NCBI GenBank assembly: GCA_964534375.1
Contig: CAZHPN010000068.1
Coordinates: forward strand, 1-27,664
Reading direction: 5' to 3'
Origin: an uncultured bacterium
GTDB taxonomy: Bacteria > Lernaellota > Lernaellaia > Lernaellales > Lernaellaceae
Length of the DNA stretch: 27,664 bases
Part shown: positions 1-15,782 of the stretch, piece by piece
Numbering within the stretch: position 1 is the first letter of the stretch
Layout: each line of letters opens with the position of its first letter
Made by a program: the position numbers and the translations under genes
Notes under the pieces: generated by a model
The model's database searches: none
What the model was told of the DNA's origin: nothing
Seen by the model: the letters and a program-made list of their open reading frames with translations, nothing else

Positions 1-86
1 CGGACCCCGGCCCCCGGCCCCGGAACCCGGAACCTGGACCCCGGCCCCCGGAACCCGGAACCCGGAACCCGGACCCCGGACCCCGA
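1..86. repeat. Degenerate heptamer tandem repeat, consensus GG(A/C)(A/C)CCC, about 12 units, cut by the window edge
   Basis: Directly visible: ggaaccc ggaacct ggacccc ggccccc ggaaccc ggaaccc ggaaccc ggacccc ggacccc. Confidence 0.9.
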
Positions 87-184
87 CCGCCGCCCCCCGC
101 GCCTTCGGCGCGTCTTGTCTGCCCGTCTGCGTCCGCTCGAACGCGATTTTTTCGGATTCGCCCTGCGCCCCTTCCACTGTAAGA

Positions 185-357
185 GCGCCCTTCCGGGCGC
201 GATTCACGCGCCGCAGGCGCGGACCGCAAGCGCCAACGGCGCGAAATATAACAGCCTGGGTCGGAGGCCGAAGGCCGCAGGCCCAGGTACGATACGGCGC
301 ATTGTTTTTCATTCATTCCGCGCGCCATCGGTGCGCGATACGGGCGCCAACGGTGCG
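185..357. repeat. Cluster of short GC-rich REP-like hairpins
   Basis: gcgcccttccgggcgc (185-200), cgcgccgcaggcgcgg (207-222), three copies of gcgcca(a/t)cgg(c/t)gcg (230-243, 322-335, 344-357) and a cctggg...ggccgaaggcc...cccagg stem (255-287). Confidence 0.7.
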
Positions 358-375
358 AACCAACGCAACCGACGA

Positions 376-396
376 CTGTTCGCTGTTCGCTGTTCA
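376..396. repeat. Heptamer tandem repeat (CTGTTCG)x3
   Basis: ctgttcg ctgttcg ctgttca. Confidence 0.75.
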
Positions 397-574
397 CCGC
401 TCCGCGCGGCCCGCGGCCGATCCGCCGGGGAAGAAGACGATGGGAGAAAAATGGGGGTTGGATCGCACGATTTGCTTTGACGTTCGGGGTCACGAACCCG
501 CAAAGGCCGCGCGCGGAAAACGGACAAAAACGGTTGAATGTCCCGAACGGCTCCCCCAAAAGTGTTTCATCGCC

Positions 575-3500
575 TTACGCGTTCCTTTTTTGTGCCAACT
601 TTCCTAGTCTCGGCCTTTGTTTTTTCCTTTTTTTCTTCGGATTGCGTACGGGCCATCCGCAGACTTTAAAAATCTCTAGGATATCTGGATTTCCTGACTC
701 AATCATCGCCTCGAATATCGCCACGCCTGTTTCATCGCCGTAGCAAATGTCCCTAAAACAATGTGCAATTTGTAAGGGGGCTTCGTGGCGTTGACGGGTG
801 CTCTCGGCTATTGCGGAGAAGTTCTTTTTCAGTTCCGCCGCGGCGATTCGGTGTTCCTCAACGTGTTCGTCAGAATATTTCAGCTGCTTGCGCAAGCCGT
901 CTTCATTTGGGCCATAAAATCCAATGACAAAAAGCATCCCGTCAAAAAGCACCTGCCAACTGGCCGAATAAATATCAGCCCTGGACGGTTCGCCGTCGGC
1001 GAACGCCGAAACCGTTTTATGCCACCGCGCAGGGTCGGCCAGCGGTGCTCGGCGTGGCACAGTCGGCAAAAACAAAGTACCCAAAGCCTCGTCCCAAAGA
1101 GGCAACGGCCTTAGATCGAAAATCGAAATTACAAATTGGTTAATGATTCTGGCCTTCACCGGGTCGGCAATCAGAGCGGCCCAATTGATATCTGGGTTTT
1201 CCGCCCATAGGCGATCGTACATGGAGGGGGATCTGAGAACATGCCTCAACGTCTTGTCTGAGTGCCGCCCCGAAGAGAGAGCAAGATCAAGTGGCATCGC
1301 GTGATCAGCCTCTAGCTGTTCGGCCTGACTCATCGAAATTCGAATAACTTTTGAATCGCCGGGGTCCCGTACGGTAACCGGATTCCGTCCCAACTTTCTT
1401 GATAGGGCCAAAACGTCCTCCCGCGAAGTCAACCTCCCGGTCGCCTGAATGGCGCGTAGCTGAAAAATTTTCCACAGGATACGACTGCGGCCCTCAACCA
1501 CCTTCGTAAGTTCTCCCTCAGACATTCTCGTAAGCAAGACTGCCGCTGCAAAGCGAACGGCGGACTTGTTCGGCGAAAAAAGGAGCAGATGACATACAAA
1601 ATGAGTAAATGGCCCCGACAAGGTAGTCGGGCCGGCAATAGTTGATTGCAGGTATACCAGTGTCTCAAACCAGGTCTTCGAAGCCACCAGATCATCCCAC
1701 GACGGAAACGACAGCAAAGATGCCGCCAACCGATTCATACCCGGCGATGTTGTTATGGCGTGCCTAATCGTGGCCCAAAGAAGATTAAAATCCGGCTCAA
1801 GTTCAGTCGCTTCTGTTGAGTTCAATGCTTGCCCGGCGAAAAAAGACAGCTGCGCTCGCTCGCGTATCGGTCCTCGTCGGCAAAGTTTCCAGGTCTCCGG
1901 CAAATCCATCCCCGCCGCAAGAATTACCAGACGAAGACACGTCAATTCTTTCTCCGTTTTCAACCCTCTAGACAACGATCGTGCGGCGCCTTTGAAAGCC
2001 TCCCAATTCCCGTCCGTTTTTTCGCGACACGCTCTGAGCATCGCCAGCGTGTCGTGCAAAAGTCCGGAGTCATCCAGGCCCGTGCATGCAAGAACCAATG
2101 TCCGGATCACAAGCGTTTTATGCACGACGGCAGACGCGACGCCATCCAACAGCAGTCCGCCAAGAACCTGAGCAACATTTGCGTCAGCCCCGGCGCAAGC
2201 AAGAATTTTTTCGACAAGGAACAACTGCGCTTCGTCAGCATATCCCGCAACAAGCAACCGAAGCACCTCTCTCCAACGCGGATCCGCGCAATGGTTTTCT
2301 ATTTCGGCTCCCCACGCGTCGCTAACGCCATTCAACTCCGCAAGCGTTTTGATTCTGGCTGCGGTCAAATATTCTTGGAACGTCAAATGAATGAAACTAA
2401 ACTGTCTGTCGCCGATCTCCACGAGGAGGCCAGCGCGATCTTGAACAAACTCAATAAAATCCGTTGCAAGTATGTCCGGGGAGTAATCCGGATCGGGTGG
2501 CTTTTCTTCTGATATATGTTCGGATAACACAGCCTTCAGCGCCTTATATGTAACCACTGCCTGTCGCCCCGACTCCTCGCCCCCCATTTCATGGTGCATC
2601 CAATACGCGATTGCTTGCATTCTATGCATATTATGCTGATCAACTTTGGCCCGGTGAAGGCGATCCTTCTCGTGGAATTTTGAGGTATGCCACGTATTTA
2701 AAAGAGTTTCCGTACATTTTTGATATAACACATGACGCTCGTCCGGAAGTACTGCATCAATCCGATGCACGAGAACCATGATTGTCAAAAGAAGAGGGTT
2801 ACGTGCCAAATCGCGGATCGCGACATGCTGATCGTTGCGCAATATCGCCAGCAAGCTATCAAGATATTCTTCTCGTTCACGCGGGCTTTCGAACCTCACA
2901 TTGTACCAATCTTTTACGAATTGTGCGATTTCTTCGTCACGAAGTTTTGCCAATTTGTGATGAACAAAATCGCTTTTGTCGAAGCTGAACGGCCCTTGAT
3001 AGCCGTAAACCCGTGACGTAACAATAATTGAAGTCCCCGGATATGTTGCCGCAAGATTGCGAATGCGGTTACGTATTTGTATTTTGAAAGTGGGCGACGG
3101 TAATTCGTCAACGCCATCAAAAAGTAGAATCGCATTTCCCGATTCGAGGTAATATTCGATAAACTCAATGGGAACCCCACCGATCGATAGGTCCGCCTCT
3201 ATGTTGGCGCGCATATACTCTATTAGAGAAAGATTATCGTCTGATTTGATCGCGTCGGCATACCGGCGTAGGGTCACAAACACAGGAAGGCGTTCATCGG
3301 ATATGAATTGAAACCGCGACGCTCTGTCCGGCTTCCACGAACGCCGTTGAAGCGCTTTTGATCTCCCCAGCAGGGCTAGAAACTTCAAAAGAGTCGTTTT
3401 CCCAGAGCCGGGATCCCCAAGAATGACATGGCAAGACCCGAGCGCAAGAAAATCGACCGGATCGCGGCGAGGCGTATTGGGGTCATTTTCATCGGCATCG

Positions 3501-4303
3501 TTTGCAATTGCCGAAAGCGGGATATAGATTTGTTCTATAGGGACAGCATGCGTCGACTCTTCTTTATAAACTGACATCCCGACGAATTCGATACGACCGT
3601 GCTCTTCGACTATCGCTTTATCATATTGAGCGCGTATACCATTTATCGTTTTCTTTCGTTCGACGCCATTTGGATACAGTTCGGGATAATAGTAGAGCCC
3701 GATCGAAGGGATCTGAAGAAAGAGGCCTTGAAGGTGCGTGTGACCCCAATGTTCAATATCGAAGTCGCAGCCGACGTCGTCTCTAAGTTTTTTAAACCAT
3801 GAAACGTCGCCGGCGTCTTTCCGACCCGACGGTTCGACGAAATCCTCAGGAGTAACAAGAATCCATTTTTTTAATCGTAGCCTGTCCTTTGGTGGTATTC
3901 TTTCGTGCTCAGGAGAGTCTTTTGACTTGCCGGCGGCGCGAATTAGCGATTCTTTTATCTCAGCGCGATGCGCCGCGCTCAAAGGACACGGAAAAAATTT
4001 GTGCTGATAGCCGACGATGCCATCCGGTTTCTCTTCATACGCATCAAGTCCTTGAACGTCGCCTGCACGGTCGTCGAAAAGGGTAATCGATCCTTCTTCC
4101 CTGCGTCGGGTGTGAAAAAGGAGCAAATTGACGACTCGGGCAAACTCCCGCCCGCTTGACGAACTCCTCGGGGGCAGGATGGTGTAAAGACTTGACACTT
4201 CGGGAATTCGTTGCCTCATCCTCGCGCTCACACGCAGTCTCGCAGGCTCGTGCTGCTGGCCTTTTGTTTTTTTGCCACTTGGTTCGCCGATTTTTCCTGT
4301 CAT
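575..4303 (-). CDS. NACHT (STAND) NTPase with an N-terminal Mrr/PD-(D/E)xK-like nuclease domain; putative NLR-like antiphage protein
   Basis: 1242-aa ORF. Walker A GDPGSGKTT, PVFVTLRRY, Walker B LLFDGVDE, IIVTSR, LARNPLLLT, FSFIHLTFQEYL and WREVLRLL are NACHT-module motifs. N-terminal REF..V / GDVQGLD / YQHK resembles a QxK-type restriction-nuclease fold. GGAGA RBS lies upstream of the ATG. GC is visibly lower than in neighbouring genes. Confidence 0.9.
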   Translation of the reverse strand: MTGKIGEPSGKKTKGQQHEPARLRVSARMRQRIPEVSSLYTILPPRSSSSGREFARVVNLLLFHTRRREEGSITLFDDRAGDVQGLDAYEEKPDGIVGYQHKFFPCPLSAAHRAEIKESLIRAAGKSKDSPEHERIPPKDRLRLKKWILVTPEDFVEPSGRKDAGDVSWFKKLRDDVGCDFDIEHWGHTHLQGLFLQIPSIGLYYYPELYPNGVERKKTINGIRAQYDKAIVEEHGRIEFVGMSVYKEESTHAVPIEQIYIPLSAIANDADENDPNTPRRDPVDFLALGSCHVILGDPGSGKTTLLKFLALLGRSKALQRRSWKPDRASRFQFISDERLPVFVTLRRYADAIKSDDNLSLIEYMRANIEADLSIGGVPIEFIEYYLESGNAILLFDGVDELPSPTFKIQIRNRIRNLAATYPGTSIIVTSRVYGYQGPFSFDKSDFVHHKLAKLRDEEIAQFVKDWYNVRFESPREREEYLDSLLAILRNDQHVAIRDLARNPLLLTIMVLVHRIDAVLPDERHVLYQKCTETLLNTWHTSKFHEKDRLHRAKVDQHNMHRMQAIAYWMHHEMGGEESGRQAVVTYKALKAVLSEHISEEKPPDPDYSPDILATDFIEFVQDRAGLLVEIGDRQFSFIHLTFQEYLTAARIKTLAELNGVSDAWGAEIENHCADPRWREVLRLLVAGYADEAQLFLVEKILACAGADANVAQVLGGLLLDGVASAVVHKTLVIRTLVLACTGLDDSGLLHDTLAMLRACREKTDGNWEAFKGAARSLSRGLKTEKELTCLRLVILAAGMDLPETWKLCRRGPIRERAQLSFFAGQALNSTEATELEPDFNLLWATIRHAITTSPGMNRLAASLLSFPSWDDLVASKTWFETLVYLQSTIAGPTTLSGPFTHFVCHLLLFSPNKSAVRFAAAVLLTRMSEGELTKVVEGRSRILWKIFQLRAIQATGRLTSREDVLALSRKLGRNPVTVRDPGDSKVIRISMSQAEQLEADHAMPLDLALSSGRHSDKTLRHVLRSPSMYDRLWAENPDINWAALIADPVKARIINQFVISIFDLRPLPLWDEALGTLFLPTVPRRAPLADPARWHKTVSAFADGEPSRADIYSASWQVLFDGMLFVIGFYGPNEDGLRKQLKYSDEHVEEHRIAAAELKKNFSAIAESTRQRHEAPLQIAHCFRDICYGDETGVAIFEAMIESGNPDILEIFKVCGWPVRNPKKKRKKQRPRLGKLAQKRNA

Positions 4304-4518
4304 GGCGTCATCTCCGAACGCAAATCATCGCGTTTGCAAACTGTACGGTGAAATTCCGGAACACAACACCTATTTCCCTCCTCACTTCGGCCGTCGTCCC
4401 GCTTTCCGGGGCCAGAGCGGACGTTGAAGCAACCGTTCGGAGGCTTCAGGGGGGACAAAATGCTTAATTCGGCCTCCCGTGTCGGATTCGTCAAACAATC
4501 GCACCTCGCCTCGCTTGT

Positions 4519-4547
4519 TTAACATGTTTCGCATCCCGGATTGTCAA
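4519..4547 (-). promoter_or_regulatory. Possible sigma70 promoter for the NACHT gene
   Basis: On the minus strand, TTGACA (4547-4542) is followed 17 nt later by TGTTAA in an AT-rich patch; the -10 match is weak. Confidence 0.3.
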
Positions 4548-4596
4548 TGATTTAATATCAGCGTCCGCATCGCGGCGCAAGGGCGCGGGGTTCCGC

Positions 4597-4629
4597 CTTC
4601 GCCAAGGCTTCCCGACTTCGCCAAGGCTT
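4597..4629. repeat. Direct repeat CTTCGCCAAGGCTT x2
   Basis: Identical 14-mers at 4597-4610 and 4616-4629. Confidence 0.8.
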
Positions 4630-4685
4630 GGTCACGTCAAGCCCCGCGCTCCCGGGGCGTCGGCCCCGCGGTGCGCGGCCGATGA

Positions 4686-4709
4686 GGGCACAGCGCGCTG
4701 TGCCCCTAC
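4686..4709 (-). repeat. GTAG-type REP element
   Basis: Reverse complement reads GTAG-GGGCACAGCGCGCTGTGCCC: GTAG foot plus a perfect palindrome. Confidence 0.8.
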
Positions 4710-4715
4710 GCCGGA

Positions 4716-4853
4716 CCGCGCCTGCGGCGCGGGTAATTTTCGGGGCCGGCCGGAGCGCCGGTCTTCAGACCGGCCCTGGGAGCGCCGACGCCCCCGTCGG
4801 CGCCGAAATCATAAACGCCGACGAGGGCGTCGGCGCTCCCGGCAAGGCGCGGG
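4716..4853. repeat. About 137-bp multi-hairpin repeat, copy 1 (BIME/REPIN-like)
   Basis: Near-identical to 5117-5253 (core offset exactly 400 nt). Contains gccggtcttcagaccggc and a long inverted pair gggagcgccgacgccc...gggcgtcggcgctccc (4778-4840). Confidence 0.9.
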
Positions 4854-4864
4854 GCGGGTCGGAG

Positions 4865-5064
4865 CCGAATTTCGAATTGCGAATTGCGAATCGCGAATCC
4901 CGCGCGTTGTTCGCCGATGGACGCAACATGAACCGCCGGGTTCCGGGGTCCGGGATCGCAAATGGCGAATGGCGAATGGCGAATGGCGGGTAGAAAGTCT
5001 CACGCGGAGACGTGCAGAGCCAAGCAGAGCCGACCCCGAAGCCCGAATCCCGAATCCCGAATCC
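4865..5064. repeat. Mosaic of heptamer tandem repeats: (GCGAATT/C)n, (CCGGG(T/G/A)T)n, (GGCGAAT)n, (TCCCGAA)n
   Basis: Tracts at about 4865-4899, 4936-4956, 4957-4991 and 5034-5064 read directly from the sequence. Confidence 0.85.
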
Positions 5065-5074
5065 TGGCGAATGG

Positions 5075-5110
5075 CCCTCACCCCGGCCCTCTCCCAAAGG
5101 GCGAGGGAGA
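5075..5110. repeat. CCCTCACCCC...CCCTCTCCC-N-GGGCGAGGGAGA palindromic element
   Basis: ccctcaccccggccctctcccaaagggcgagggaga; resembles the interspersed palindrome family often seen next to DUF559 endonuclease genes (from recall, not searched). Confidence 0.7.
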
Positions 5111-5116
5111 ATGGGG

Positions 5117-5253
5117 CCGCGCCCGCGGCGCGGTAATTTACGGGGCCGGCCGGAGCGCCGGTCTTCAGACCGGCCCTGGGAGCGCCGACGCCCCCGTCGG
5201 CGTCGAAATCATAAACGCCGACGAGGGCGTCGGCGCTCCCGGCAAGGCGCGGG
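5117..5253. repeat. About 137-bp multi-hairpin repeat, copy 2
   Basis: Differs from 4716-4853 at only a few positions (e.g. 4803 C vs 5203 T). Confidence 0.9.
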
Positions 5254-5296
5254 CAAATCGAAAAAAGTCGCTCCCAGGGCCAGACGTGCCGGCCGT

Positions 5297-5323
5297 GTAG
5301 GGGCAGGTCCCCGAGCCTGCCCC
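5297..5323 (+). repeat. GTAG-type REP element
   Basis: GTAG-GGGCAGG tccccgag CCTGCCC hairpin. Confidence 0.8.
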
Positions 5324-5596
5324 AATGATAATGCCTGCCGGCGCCGGCACATAAGAAGGCGGTTGTCGCGTCCGGGCTTTCCGCGTTGTTATTTTGATAG
5401 TATTTAATACTCGCGAAGGGCGTCGAACGCCGTTTTCCCTACCGCGAAGGCCGGTATATGGCGGTCCGACGGCGGTCAAATTCAGTAAAATTACGAAACA
5501 AAGCCAATTTCGCTCTGCTTGACGGCGACGGCGAGGGAGGCGATCATTTTCCGCCTCTGGGCGGAAGAAAACGGACCGGCGGCGAAAGGCGACGTG

Positions 5597-7666
5597 ATGC
5601 GTTTCTGGCTTTGCGTGCTGTTGATTCTGGCGAGCGTCGCGGCGGTTGCGTGCGGCCACGGGGCAAGCAGTTCGGCGAGCGCCGGCGGCGACGACGACGA
5701 CGACGACAATAACGATGCGTCGCCGCCCGCCGATGACGACACGTACCCGCAATGCGACCAGCGGGCGGGCTCGCCGATGTTCACGATTCACATCGATCCA
5801 TCCGACAAGGGCCGCGTGTTCGATGGCCTCGGCGCGATCTCCAGCGCCGGCAATTCCCGCTATTTGATCGATTATCCCGAGCCGCAGCGCAGCCAGATTC
5901 TCGACTACCTGTTCAAGCCCGGCTACGGGGCGGCGCTGCAGATTCTCAAGGTCGAGATCGGCGGCGACGCCAACAGCTCCAGCGGCGCCGACGCCAGCCA
6001 CATGCACACCGCCGACGATCTGAATTGCGACCGCAGTTACGAATGGTGGTTGATCGAGGAGGCGAAGAAGCGCAACCCGAATATCAAGGTTTACGGGCTG
6101 GCCTGGACCTCGCCGAGTTGGATTCTCGCGCCGTTCTGCTGGTCGCCCGAATATATGGATTATCTGCTGGCTTGGATCGACTGCGGCCAGACGCACGGCT
6201 TCACGGCCGACTACCTCGGCGGTTGGAATGAGGGCCTGTGGAACCGCCGCTGGTTCATCCGCCTCGCCGCGGAGATCAAGAAGCGTGGGCTGCCGACCAA
6301 GATCGTGGGGGCGGACACGCACGGCGACTTCGGCTGGCTCTTCCCGGATTTGCTCGCGCTCGATCCGGGCTTCGCGGCGGCGATCGACGTCATCGGCGTG
6401 CATTATCCGTGCAACGACACGGGCTGCACGTCGTCGGCCGCGGCGATCGGCCTGGGCAAGCCGCTGTGGGCGAGCGAAGACGGCGGCAGCGCGGCGGTCT
6501 GGGCGCGCAACATCAATCGCGGCTACATCGACGCCCGGTTGACGGCGCACATCAACTGGCCGCTGGTCGCCGCGGACTCGGACGGGGCCGCCATGGCCGG
6601 CGCGGGCGTGCTGCAGGCGAACCAGCCGTGGTCCGGCGCGTACACGATCGATCAGCAAATCTGGGTGTGGGCGCACCTCACCCAATTCACGCAGCCGGGC
6701 TGGCGCTATCTCGACGGCGCGGTCGGCTATCTGCAAGGCTACCGCCGATTCGGCAGCTACACGACGCTGATCTCGCCGGACGGGGCGGATTTGGCGGTCG
6801 TCATCGAAACCACGACGGCGATCGGCGACCAGTACGTCGAATTGGTGCTGGACGGCGCCGCGCCGCAGAAAACGCTGCACCTGTGGGCGTCGGACACGTC
6901 ATCCTCGAACAACGACGACTATTTTCTTCACTCGTGCGATGCGACGCCGAGCGGCGGGGTCGTGCGCCTGTTGTTGCAGCCGAATCGTCTGTACACGCTC
7001 TCGACCGTCGGCGGGCAGGGCAAGGGAACCGCCGCCGGGCCCGCGCCGGCGCCGTTCCCGCTGCCGTACGAAAACGACTTCGAGAGCGACACGCTCGGCC
7101 GCGAGGCGCGCTGGCTGGTGACGCAGGAGGGCTCGTTCGAGGTCGCGCCGTGCACCGGGCGCACGGGCCAGTGCGTGCGCCAGACCACGCCGGAGTTGCC
7201 GGTTTTCTGGGGCGGCCTGCAGATGATCGATACGCCGTTCACGCTCGTCGGCGACGGCAACCTTGCCGATTACACCGTCACGGTCGACGCCATGCCCGAA
7301 ACCGACGGCACGATCCGCCTGCTCGGCCGCTACGCCGCGCAGGTGCCGTTTTATCTGCCGCAGCACACGGGATATGAATTCTCGCTCGCAACCGACGGAA
7401 CGTGGGAGATTCGCCGTGTCGATTTGGACAATGCCACGGTCCTCGCTTCGGGAACCGCCGCCGCCTGGCCGGCCGGCGCCTGGCGCACGCTCGCGTTGTC
7501 GATGAAGGGCGATCAAATCACCGCCTCGGCCGACGGCGCCGCGCTGGCAACGGCGACCGATGCCACCTACGCGACCGGTGTCGCCGGATTCGGCCTGGGC
7601 GGGCATCCGGGCGCCGGCGGCTACTTCTACGCGCAATTCGATAATTTGGAGATTGCCGCCGAGTAG
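5597..7666 (+). CDS. Glycoside hydrolase family 59 (galactosylceramidase-like) lipoprotein
   Basis: FDGLGAIS..GNSRYLIDYPEPQRSQILDYLFKPGYGAALQILKVEIGGDANSSSG matches the GH59 N-terminus. WNE acid/base, WASE nucleophile and a C-terminal lectin-like beta-sandwich are present. Signal peptide with lipobox VAAVA-C is followed by an Asp-rich linker. Start moved to ATG 5597. Confidence 0.92.
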   Translation: MRFWLCVLLILASVAAVACGHGASSSASAGGDDDDDDNNDASPPADDDTYPQCDQRAGSPMFTIHIDPSDKGRVFDGLGAISSAGNSRYLIDYPEPQRSQILDYLFKPGYGAALQILKVEIGGDANSSSGADASHMHTADDLNCDRSYEWWLIEEAKKRNPNIKVYGLAWTSPSWILAPFCWSPEYMDYLLAWIDCGQTHGFTADYLGGWNEGLWNRRWFIRLAAEIKKRGLPTKIVGADTHGDFGWLFPDLLALDPGFAAAIDVIGVHYPCNDTGCTSSAAAIGLGKPLWASEDGGSAAVWARNINRGYIDARLTAHINWPLVAADSDGAAMAGAGVLQANQPWSGAYTIDQQIWVWAHLTQFTQPGWRYLDGAVGYLQGYRRFGSYTTLISPDGADLAVVIETTTAIGDQYVELVLDGAAPQKTLHLWASDTSSSNNDDYFLHSCDATPSGGVVRLLLQPNRLYTLSTVGGQGKGTAAGPAPAPFPLPYENDFESDTLGREARWLVTQEGSFEVAPCTGRTGQCVRQTTPELPVFWGGLQMIDTPFTLVGDGNLADYTVTVDAMPETDGTIRLLGRYAAQVPFYLPQHTGYEFSLATDGTWEIRRVDLDNATVLASGTAAAWPAGAWRTLALSMKGDQITASADGAALATATDATYATGVAGFGLGGHPGAGGYFYAQFDNLEIAAE

Positions 7667-13748: not shown

Positions 13749-15098
13749 ATGCTAATCGAATTCAGCGTCGAGAATTTCAAATCTATTAAGGACCGCGTCA
13801 CACTCAGCATGTTGGCCTCGAACGCCACGGGCGAGGATGAAGGCACGAATCAAAACGTGATTGTCGACGTCGGCAAGCCGAAACATCGGCTGCTGAAAAC
13901 AGCGGCAATCTACGGCGCAAATGCATCCGGCAAATCGAATCTGATCGAGGCGATAAGTTTTTTCTGCAATTTCGTCAGGGATTCCGCGAAGGAAGGTCAG
14001 TCTGGTGAGAAAATTCCCATTGACGTGTTCCGGTTGGACGCACGTTGCGCAGCAATGCCTTCGTCGTTCGAGATTGTCTTTCTCCGTGAAAACATCCGGC
14101 ATGAATACCGATTTGTCGCCGATGGCGAGAGAATCCACCACGAAAGACTGCGTGATTATCCGAAAGGACAGCCGCGAAAAGTCTTTGAGAGACGCTGGGA
14201 TCCTGGGGAAAAGACATACGCTTTTGAAAAGGGCTCGGGGTGGATTGGGGAATGGAAAACCCTTCAGGACCTGACGCGACCGAACGCTTTGTTTTTGTCC
14301 GTCGCGGCGCAACTGAACAACGAACTTGCGGGCCGCATCGTCGAATGGATTGGCGGCAACATAAAATTTCTGGGATTATTCCCAGAAGATAATACCGGGT
14401 ATTATTTTACACTGATCCTGGCGCAAGAAAACCTTGGAATTCACAATGCAATGTTGAAATGGCTTAGGCATGTTGATCCGGGAATTGCGGATTTCGAGAT
14501 CAAGTTCGACGAATTCGCTGCGTTTGGGGATTCCACCAGCGTTTATCCGGTGAAAACCAAAACGGTCGTCACCATTCACCAAGGTGTCGCCCCCGACGGA
14601 ACCGCAAAACCAGTCCTTTTTCGGCTTGAGCAAGAATCTCATGGAACGCAGAGGTTCTTTTCCCTTTTATTTCCATTGTACGTTTCTTTGGAGTCGGGCT
14701 TCACGCTCGTCGCCGACGAGTTGGACACGCGGCTTCACCCGCTGATCACGCGATGGATCATCAATCTCTTCCACGACCCGAAAACCAACCCGCACACTGC
14801 ACAGTTGGTATTTGCCACGCATGACGCGGGTTTGCTGGGCAAGAGACTTTCCCGCCGCGGCCAAGGTACGAGAACCGACCGGCCCGATGAAGAATCGGCA
14901 ATCGCGGCGGATGGTTCGAGAAGGCGCGGCGAAGAATTATTCCGTCGCGACCAGATTTGGCTGACCCACAAAGAAAACGGCGCGACGCGTCTTTATTCGT
15001 TGTGGGACCTTCGCATCCGGAATACCGAAGATCTGCGGGCCAACTATTTGTTAGGGCGATACGGCGGCGTGCCTTTCATCGACGAGTTGGATCCTTAG
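13749..15098 (+). CDS. AAA_21 / ABC-type ATPase (RloA / AbiLi-like)
   Basis: MLIEFSVENFKSI, Walker A GANASGKS, signature QESHGT, Walker B VADELD, LHP, ATHD, RRDQIW and YLLGRYGGVP; GGAGG RBS. Confidence 0.92.
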   Translation: MLIEFSVENFKSIKDRVTLSMLASNATGEDEGTNQNVIVDVGKPKHRLLKTAAIYGANASGKSNLIEAISFFCNFVRDSAKEGQSGEKIPIDVFRLDARCAAMPSSFEIVFLRENIRHEYRFVADGERIHHERLRDYPKGQPRKVFERRWDPGEKTYAFEKGSGWIGEWKTLQDLTRPNALFLSVAAQLNNELAGRIVEWIGGNIKFLGLFPEDNTGYYFTLILAQENLGIHNAMLKWLRHVDPGIADFEIKFDEFAAFGDSTSVYPVKTKTVVTIHQGVAPDGTAKPVLFRLEQESHGTQRFFSLLFPLYVSLESGFTLVADELDTRLHPLITRWIINLFHDPKTNPHTAQLVFATHDAGLLGKRLSRRGQGTRTDRPDEESAIAADGSRRRGEELFRRDQIWLTHKENGATRLYSLWDLRIRNTEDLRANYLLGRYGGVPFIDELDP

Positions 15099-15107
15099 GG
15101 AGACGCC

Positions 15108-15782
15108 ATGACGACGCGCAAACGCCGCCCAACGCGAGACAGTATTTCACGACCCCGGAACAACATCGGGCGTTTCCCAAGACGCAACATGTTGATCGTT
15201 TGCGAGGGAGAGAAAACCGAACCGAATTATTTCGATGACGTTCGTCGTTATTTCCACGTACAGCGCGAATTTTGCATCGTGATCGGCCGATGCGGCGATC
15301 CTCGATCGGTCGTCCAACGCGCCAAACGCGAAAAAATCGCCGCAGAAAGCATCGATGAGCCGTTTGACGAAATCTGGGTCGTCTTCGATCGTGACGATGT
15401 CGCCGGCGTCGAAAACGCCATCCAAATGGCCCGCGACAACGACTTCAACGTCGCGTTTTCGAACCCGTGTTTCGAGTTGTGGTACCTACTGCATTTTCGC
15501 GACCAGACTGCCCATCTGAATCAGCAAGCAGCCAAGAGAGCCATGCGGCAATGCATCGAGGGGTACCGCGAGAGCCAGGCAGGCTTGTACGAGGAATATT
15601 TTCGCGACCGTGAAAATCGTGCGATTGCCCGGGCCGAAAAGCTGCGGGCCAGGTATGACGACGAATTGAAATGGAGCGGGCGGAACCCATTCACGACCGT
15701 TGACCTGCTCGTAATTGCTATCGCGGAGTCTTACGGCCCGGCGCCGGCCTCGCCCTCGCCATGCGTCGCGGAAGACTACTGA
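15108..15782 (+). CDS. rloB: RloB-like protein (TOPRIM-like; AbiLii-like)
   Basis: LIVCEGEKTEPNYF, WVVFDRD, FSNPCFELWYLLHF and NPFTTV motifs; starts 10 nt after the ATPase stop. Confidence 0.92.
   Translation: MTTRKRRPTRDSISRPRNNIGRFPRRNMLIVCEGEKTEPNYFDDVRRYFHVQREFCIVIGRCGDPRSVVQRAKREKIAAESIDEPFDEIWVVFDRDDVAGVENAIQMARDNDFNVAFSNPCFELWYLLHFRDQTAHLNQQAAKRAMRQCIEGYRESQAGLYEEYFRDRENRAIARAEKLRARYDDELKWSGRNPFTTVDLLVIAIAESYGPAPASPSPCVAEDY

Follow-up and report, generated by a model that had tools for sequence, protein, structure and literature searches.

A foreign-looking nuclease-NACHT gene amid native intergenic repeats of an uncultured Lernaellaceae bacterium

In enterobacteria, bacterial interspersed mosaic elements (BIMEs) are intergenic mosaics of several modules resembling repetitive extragenic palindromes (REPs), combined in varying order and orientation. 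REP and REPIN elements are reportedly accompanied by REP-associated tyrosine transposases (RAYTs) of the Y1 HUH type, as Bertels and Rainey are said to have described in 2011. Two further systems involve heptamers. According to Rehm et al. 2015 (PMC4692102), the heptamer repeats of Xanthomonas and Nostoc are over-represented in non-coding DNA and under-represented between divergent genes, and the arrays of Xanthomonas often form convergent inverted pairs (70-75 cases). In the intervening sequences of Coxiella 23S rRNA (PMC4990558), a small open reading frame (ORF) of the S23p/PF05635 four-helix-bundle family is enclosed by terminal arms that are inverted and carry heptameric repeats. No literature on REP- or heptamer-delimited defence cassettes was found, judged by titles and abstract openings. 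Here we analyse a stretch of 27,664 nt from an uncultured bacterium of the Lernaellaceae (the window; assembly GCA_964534375.1, contig CAZHPN010000068.1, called C68 below), in which a nuclease-NACHT gene low in guanine plus cytosine (GC) stands between inverted repeats. An earlier note, made from the letters of the sequence, had read four imperfectly nested inverted motif pairs, A to D, as the limits of an integrase-free landing pad where cargo genes are inserted or swapped in trans. On balance, and with modest confidence, we favour a plainer account in which an antiviral gene of foreign origin settled in a mosaic of native repeats, within what was formerly a small hairpin element.

The gene (575-4303, minus strand) encodes an Avs-like STAND protein of 1242 amino acids, and its recognition as a low-GC NACHT gene holds. 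Pfam NACHT (PF05729) matches residues 293-466 (E = 5.5e-7; 30 bits against a cut-off of 26.7), and the Walker A and downstream NACHT motifs are nearly invariant among 16 homologues. Residues 1-290 match no Pfam family. Their AlphaFold (AF2) model has a mean predicted local distance difference test (pLDDT) score of 64.7, with 78-93 in the core, and a Foldseek search with this model returned Avs4 (8dgf_B) as the best match (E = 2.5e-4), followed by restriction endonucleases; the hits after Avs4 include EcoT38I, MspJI and Cdn1. Three residues of this domain, in the motif D87...Q100-x-K102, are invariant across the 16 homologues, and on the predicted fold together with the motif it is reasonable to regard the protein as a PD-(D/E)xK nuclease joined to a NACHT domain. 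No Pfam family covers the C-terminal 773 residues; the PADLOC and NCBIfam models match the protein at the P-loop level with no match at family level, and searching it by sequence against solved structures gave no meaningful match. The gene adds a widespread nuclease-NACHT family that is missing from the PADLOC and NCBIfam defence models.

The composition of the gene departs strongly from that of its surroundings, with a GC content of 0.506 against 0.642 for the genome. In bins of 500 nt, GC is 0.46-0.55 across 501-4500 and 0.67-0.68 in the flanks, and the foreign composition is confined to about 483-4560. None of 40 relatives has an orthologue, 4 of the 40 showing matches of 25-35% identity in the NACHT domain only, and because of this absence and the low GC the gene looks foreign. 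Full-length homologues of 34-58% identity come from scattered taxa, with names including Desulfosporosinus, Dongia and Pseudomonas. The family of the N-terminal domain occupies 47 loci in many phyla, and at 31 loci the gene averages 6.9 GC points below its upstream flank. Judged by sequence, this is a typical horizontally moving defence gene with a predicted antiviral role. The genome has no second copy. A low-GC ORF on contig C126 was considered as a paralogue and rejected, since it shows no similarity to the NACHT gene; its best Atlas score, 0.80, gave no usable lead. This ORF, of 471 amino acids and truncated by the end of the contig, matches no family, and between it and an A-type array lies a 55-copy heptamer array of the AGCAGCG family (C126 16835-17219, in stretch L049, C126:15000-18824). 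At the loci of the N-terminal domain family, heptamer arrays are not in excess (16 period-7 rows in 279 kb). One Pyrinomonadaceae contig (L064, 863-988) has inverted arrays, AGTAGTC in 4.7 copies and CTACTGA in 4.9, about 2 kb upstream of a nuclease-NACHT homologue; they are probably background repeats of that acidobacterial host.

Four inverted pairs had been proposed to bracket the gene, and they differ greatly in substance. Pair A exists: Tandem Repeats Finder (TRF; score threshold 30) gives a 7-nt array of 12.3 copies at 1-85, and an inverted (CCGGGKT)3 lies at 4936-4954, with arms 90-95% complementary and 4851 nt apart, the right arm being just 3 units long. Pair B is equally real, 207-226 matching 4712-4731 in inverted orientation at 19 of 20 positions. 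Within the 6.3-Mb genome motif B has 2 sites with at most one mismatch, both of them here, 7 with two mismatches and 72 with three. Fifteen of its 20 nt form the self-complementary hairpin CGCGCC-N3-GGCGCG, which occurs 97 times genome-wide (49 intergenic), and the two copies belong to different modules, the left one to M (71 loci) and the right one to modR (5 loci). For pair C the complementarity is imperfect, as had been stated, and the match is weak: CTGTTCG pairs with CGAATGG through 5 Watson-Crick and 2 G-T pairs per unit, and with CGAATTG at 6 of 7. Random draws of three against four arrays of this genome (20,000 trials) give a perfect pair in 21%, one complementary by wobble only in 11% and a match of 6 of 7 or better in 75%, so that a wobble-level match of this kind arises often. 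Pair D is chance, as the genome holds TGTCCC 559 times and GGGACA 587 times. The four pairs therefore fail as a nested boundary, B being a hairpin submodule of two unrelated modules, C weak and D chance. At the foreign segment itself no terminal inverted repeats were found, the best inverted match being equalled in 18 of 200 shuffles. Near the two ends of this low-GC segment lies a direct repeat, 402-421 and 4664-4683 (…GCGGCCGAT), with 17 of 20 positions matching. As 5 of 200 shuffles do equally well, its candidacy as a duplicated junction is weak.

Such repeats are abundant in this genome. Period 7 accounts for 1250 TRF rows, whereas periods 5, 8 and 10 have 111, 520 and 546; the period-7 rows correspond to about 1183 non-overlapping heptamer arrays of 176 canonical unit types; 785 are mostly intergenic though intergenic DNA makes up 19% of the genome. 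Arrays occur in 504 of 4651 gaps, more often in convergent (18.4%) than in divergent (12.6%) or same-direction gaps (9.6%). Same-family arrays at most 300 nt apart are inverted in 51 cases and direct in 12, whereas label shuffles give about 7 of each, and at short range these arrays are thus hairpin-forming. Allowing at most one mismatch per unit yields 98 short-range inverted pairs. In 97 of these 98 the purine-richer arm is the 5' one, a near-absolute rule of hairpin polarity. The genome has 8 matches to PF05635, 5 of them above the cut-off and all on contigs other than C68, and inverted heptamer arrays of one family enclose at least 4 of the 5 strong genes, one of which (on C6) has AACCCGG arms. 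RAYT genes are present as well, with 7 hits to PF01797 over the cut-off, and the suggestion that the REPs here have cognate RAYT genes is borne out: REP1 and REP2, which have copies in the left and right gap around the NACHT gene, respectively, flank RAYT genes on C324, C23, C380 and C59. The GTAG/CTAC signature was observed on REP3 and modR, both low-copy hairpins. The sequence GTAGGGGC occurs 104 times genome-wide, 36 of them intergenic.

If the repeats were landing sites, foreign cargo should gather beside them. Tabulated over the genome, no enrichment of repeats at low-GC cargo appears; the repeats are scattered, largely as the earlier note had said they would be were its idea wrong. An array lies beside 13 of 85 low-GC genes and 714 of 3248 others (P = 0.18). 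Counted by gap, 15 of the 462 that contain an array border on a low-GC gene, the baseline being 188 of 3889. Dispersed repeats give the same result (21 of 139 against 350 of 2850; P = 0.36), as do low-GC islands defined by composition, 15 of which have an array within 1 kb (n = 56; 13.5 expected). Genes with repeat-rich gaps on both sides number 18 where 4.9 are expected, and 16 of the 18 have a GC content of at least 0.58; repeat-rich gaps cluster regionally. Long-range inverted array pairs that lack a near partner enclose DNA of GC at least 0.58 in 56 of 62 cases, with either arm order, and the six exceptions are four PF05635 cassettes, a segment on C196 and the NACHT locus. The window itself holds a second low-GC defence island at 13749-15782, with AbiLi (E = 1.8e-89) and AbiLii (E = 1.9e-30; Pfam names AAA_21 and RloB), whose flanks contain neither genome-wide repeats nor heptamer arrays. 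As the repeat families are palindromic and abundant and repeat-rich gaps are regionally clustered, inverted matches across a gene are to be expected.

The two A arms have a further connection. On C161, positions 6800-7360 are collinear, in reverse complement, with window 61-234 (array, spacer and M) and with 4902-4954 (unique flank and inverted arm), forming an element of 560 nt with a gene-less interior of 423 nt. Its non-array parts match above all 200 shuffles, the right flank alone scoring 35 against a shuffle maximum of 27. Given this collinearity with both arms and their flanks, a single element probably has the two A arms as its ends, and C161 would have the compact form of it. The stable long-range stem on C161 joins M with M', not A with A'. 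A comparison of the C161 loop with the window interior gave nothing above shuffles, and arm order was uninformative as a test, because both orders are in use (C6 the reverse of the window, C161 the same).

These observations fit a sequence of events that we infer from the present arrangement, together with a passive role for the bracket. The low-GC STAND gene would have arrived by horizontal transfer; its product joins a putative effector, the PD-(D/E)xK nuclease, to a NACHT NTPase and a C-terminal region that is not catalogued. Its flanks would be ordinary intergenic mosaic of the host, made of heptamer arrays, REP and REP-doublet elements and small GC-rich hairpin modules, with no purpose-built boundary. 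Genome-wide, the heptamer arrays form hairpins, sometimes around a PF05635 gene of the rRNA-intervening-sequence type, while REP and REP-doublet elements are presumably spread by the RAYT (Y1 HUH) transposases of the genome. The origin of the A arms is probably a single compact hairpin element similar to that on C161, and the interior of this original element may later have been enlarged by several insertions, the defence gene included. If this is right, the locus is a caution against inferring a cassette from inverted matches on both sides of a gene in repeat-rich genomes.

The left gap has its own paralogue, on C190. It is collinear with a 1.39-kb gap upstream of a PD-Lambda-1 gene (PADLOC E = 4e-158), the sequences V, X, Y, Z with A, (CTGTTCG)3 and S following in nearly the same order. 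S (397-482, or 368-482 in its wider delimitation, plus strand) is native, and its only paralogue is that upstream of PD-Lambda-1; the alignment scores 46 against a maximum of 28 in 200 shuffles, and in an nhmmer search of the genome these two copies alone are significant (E = 1.5e-21 and 2.7e-18), the following hit having E = 0.21. V likewise occurs at these two loci only. Also upstream of PD-Lambda-1 are three tandem units of about 320 nt, composed of X, Y, inverted REP3, Z and an A array (C190 7365-8123, in stretch L050, C190:6400-11021), and just downstream of the gene lies a sequence of 180-207 nt repeated at 93-98% on C76 and C368.

The window is the entire contig C68 of a genome of 6.30 Mb in 381 contigs (GC 64.2%), and the left flank shown to the earlier reader was accordingly incomplete. 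A metagenome contig, L045, is identical to it at 100% across 10,490 nt, bridges C68 and C216 of the same genome and supplies the left side, where the full A array extends over L045 9216-9324 with 15.7 copies, starting 23 nt before the window. The gene order there is sulfatase, enoyl-CoA hydratase, acyl-CoA synthetase, DUF2239, a 1.39-kb gap, the NACHT gene, a 1.21-kb gap and a glycoside hydrolase of family GH59, which places the NACHT gene inside a 6.3-kb interval between two ordinary genes, DUF2239 upstream and GH59 downstream. A Pfam scan of 19 ORFs in the window and 9 upstream found no integrase or transposase, in agreement with the earlier reading; no recombinase family (tyrosine-recombinase integrase) was seen in these ORFs, and no genome-wide search for IntI was made. 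Seven other genomes of the family lack a GH59 orthologue, DUF2239 occurs among relatives only in G004 and without synteny, and a metagenome scan with the GH59 protein gave no match, for which reasons an empty-site comparison is impossible here rather than negative. The GH59 protein starts (window 5519-5720) with a lipoprotein-like signal and a poly-Asp run, matched at 51 places in the genome (G000), dozens of them ORF starts, and has a paralogue of 62% identity on C11. The excision or circular junctions that would accompany cargo exchange were sought in the read evidence, namely assembled contigs from four wetland runs containing the stretch, and no clean joint was found in them. Joints skipping 4945-4957 nt (L045 9316/9325 to 14271/14274) have a shorter side of only 30-33 nt and match contiguous (ACCCCGG)n(AATCCCG)n arrays on C112 and C126, and were therefore not counted as excision; the remaining joints are equally short-sided.

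Both gaps are crowded with repeats, all given here on the plus strand. On the left, the A(+) array (CGGAMCC)n occupies 1-86 by TRF and belongs to a family (AACCCGG/ACCCCGG/AACCCCG/ATCCCGG and near variants) of 43 arrays genome-wide. It is followed by a spacer module, sp, at 87-176 (9 loci), whose homologue on C161 scores 27 against a shuffle maximum of 22 and 41 nt of which recur at 97.6% on C126, and by the two-hairpin module M (CTGTAAGAG...) at 177-222, present on 43 contigs and containing the left B copy. REP1 follows at 229-287; it has 21 loci, stands inverted on both sides of the RAYT gene of C324 and lies upstream of that of C23. The (CTGTTCG)3 array at 376-396 (TRF) has the same array and flank upstream of PD-Lambda-1. 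To the right of the gene come a 19-nt tandem repeat, T, of 1.9 copies at 4593-4629 (TRF), with a weak 25-nt match (88%) upstream of (CTGTTCG)3 on C190, and modR at 4683-4751, a hairpin ending in CTAC that includes the right B copy and is also found on C111 and C125. Folding of 4560-4865 gave a z score of -6.2. A 141-nt direct repeat has its first copy at 4713-4853, with the REP2 doublet hairpin at 4776-4847, and its second, 96.5% identical, at 5114-5253, with a REP2 doublet at 5176-5247; REP2 has 37 loci and flanks RAYT-like genes on C380 and C59. Between the copies TRF placed the arrays (CGAATTG)4.7 at 4866-4898, (CGAATGG)4 at 4961-4988, from a family of 88 arrays genome-wide (canonical AATGGCG), and (CCCGAAT)4.3 at 5035-5064, which pairs imperfectly with 4934-4956 in the fold. 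The unique flank with the A(-) arm (CCGGGKT)3 at 4902-4956 matches the C161 element at its right end, with 87% identity across 53 nt. A local hairpin of 4934-4956 with about 5046-5069 was predicted and rejected, being no stabler than shuffles (z = +1.5). The row closes with REP3 at 5286-5335, a GTAGGGGCAGG...CCTGCCCC-type hairpin with 11 loci, including 3 inverted copies on C190, and module P at 5388-5510, upstream of the GH59 gene (23 loci; 74% over 125 nt, inverted, on C190).

The most serious rival, which we hold to be possible though unlikely, is that the mosaic, consisting of (CCCGGAA)n, then (CTGTTCG)3, then S, marks preferred sites for the insertion or exchange of foreign defence genes with no dedicated integrase, perhaps through homologous recombination via the flanks or breakage of hairpin DNA. 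Several points weigh against the account that we prefer. The homology of S ends at the same TTGACG just before each cargo, after which the cargos differ, and the sharing of S and V between two defence-gene loci has a chance of roughly 5% under pure coincidence, a figure based on the 4.8% of gaps that border on a low-GC gene. Of the 56 low-GC islands, 4 have an A-superfamily array within 1 kb where 0.77 are expected (P = 0.013), and all four have the array in the same orientation and on the same side. C196 carries a 2.3-kb segment of GC 0.535 between inverted AAAAAGG arms at 4072-4102 and 6424-6454 (L027, C196:3900-6600). Our gene calls come from a crude home-made ORF scorer that missed some low-GC genes, and no close relative exists for an empty-site comparison at the locus. 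Cargo near A-type arrays elsewhere, an island with a 5-hydroxymethyldeoxyuridine (5-hmdU) DNA kinase on C52 and a DUF3800 gene on C59, and the short gene-less interior on C161 would also suit such a hotspot. On the other side, S is common to two loci only, the right-hand flank is not shared and T lies on the left at C190, the AbiL island has no repeats, and arrays in general are not enriched at islands. The island statistic is post hoc, the family having been picked after the data with eight family sets tried, and without the window island it drops to 3 (P = 0.052). Neither an empty site nor other cargo was seen in any strain, there being no close strain for comparison. For the landing-pad idea, the paralogous flank before PD-Lambda-1 leaves a weak hint, and the tie between repeats and low-GC cargo is not supported; movement of cargo in trans is purely conjectural. 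The specific proposal that defence genes enter an integrase-free hotspot of native mosaic just after the TTGACG of S, with hairpin elements of the C161 type as its empty form, we consider doubtful. Were a hotspot real, the abundant and unexplained heptamer/REP mosaics would gain a role as integrase-free landing sites for defence genes, which bears on the assembly of defence islands in little-studied phyla. Two of the loci named here have further features. The C52 island (L051, C52:6000-13000), of about 6.9 kb of low GC, starts 27 nt past a 14.7-copy (TCCCGGA)n array and encodes its kinase with PF18723 at E = 2e-113; 5-hmdU DNA kinases are typical of phage DNA hypermodification. Clustering of the X module on C52 was discarded as a repeated composite unit, X lying in a different gap from the array. 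The C196 arms have no nearer partners, the left GC shift falls right at the arm, and the segment has three ORFs, two of them small and the other similar to a ClpP-like SDH protease.

The preferred account, of a foreign gene in native mosaic, also has to be set against simpler and bolder readings. Pure coincidence, with the four pairs as unrelated matches between two repeat-rich gaps, draws on the ease with which complementary array pairs arise in random draws, on the trivial frequency of D and on the local clustering of same-family arrays in both orientations; it is nevertheless improbable, for the C161 element has at its two ends counterparts of the unique flanks of both A arms, with scores above all shuffles, and motif B is unique to the locus at one mismatch or fewer. 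The C161 matches, of arms and flanks around a short interior, speak for an opposite extreme, which is in line with the mechanism put forward in the earlier note. Here an element akin to the rRNA intervening sequences would end in the two A arms and carry the NACHT gene as cargo, the whole moving together, perhaps in single-stranded form with a RAYT or another HUH enzyme acting in trans. The PF05635 genes between inverted arrays, with the AACCCGG arms on C6, lend it precedent. However, the arms here are native and GC-rich while the foreign composition stops well inside them, the right arm has three units, the C161 stem is formed by M and not by A, and C6 has the opposite arm order. The interior also contains REP1, modR, REP2 and three other arrays and looks like piecemeal accumulation; moreover, there is no second gene copy in the genome, and homologues elsewhere are not accompanied by such arms. 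We judge a mobile cassette quite improbable. Least credible of all is an invertible segment in which recombination at the inverted A or B repeats flips the NACHT gene as a switch. Inverted repeats do flank the gene, and opposite-strand joints (L045 9461/14349) occur in 4 runs, but these have 30-45 nt on the shorter side, fall inside multi-copy hairpin modules and come from assembled contigs, and the upstream region of the gene (4304-4560) lies within the segment, so that flipping would not switch it off.

Compared with known systems, the locus shares features with several. The notion of exchangeable cargo between imperfect inverted repeats recalls integron cassettes, which differ in that the scanned ORFs here include no integrase and the locus has no attC-like single site and no cassette array. 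Terminal inverted repeats and a target-site duplication, as in a transposon or a miniature inverted-repeat transposable element, do not stand out, the best matches being reached by 18 and 5 of 200 shuffles, respectively. As with the rRNA intervening sequences, strong PF05635 genes of this genome (at least 4 of 5) lie between inverted arrays of one family; the window, in contrast, has no PF05635 gene, an interior about 10 times longer and a position outside rRNA. The A arms likewise depart from the class of heptamer-armed hairpins of this genome, being 4851 nt apart against at most 300 nt in the 98 pairs, with a gap of 423 nt on C161. In line with the heptamer repeats described by Rehm et al., the arrays here are 7-nt, intergenic and inverted, and divergent gaps are poorer in them than convergent ones; unlike those of Xanthomonas, they are least frequent in same-direction gaps (9.6%), comprise 176 unit types instead of one dominant G-rich unit, and in pair A are 4.85 kb apart instead of adjacent. 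Resemblance to REP/RAYT systems lies in short palindromic extragenic repeats in tens of copies (REP1 21, REP2 37 and M 71 loci), in REP2 as an inverted doublet hairpin and in RAYT genes flanked by their own REPs; the difference is that REPs here are one component of the flanks and that nothing shows them moving the NACHT gene. A 5' GTAG is visible in the low-copy REP3 and modR hairpins, the two looked at. The protein differs from Avs4 (PDB 8dgf) in having no sequence-level family match (P-loop level only in PADLOC and NCBIfam) and a role in phage defence that is predicted, and resembles it in the modelled order of an N-terminal effector with a restriction-endonuclease fold, a STAND/NACHT NTPase and a long C-terminal region. 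Set apart from BIMEs by other sequences, another lineage and the inclusion of heptamer arrays, the flanks of the gene are like them in being mosaics of mixed modules.

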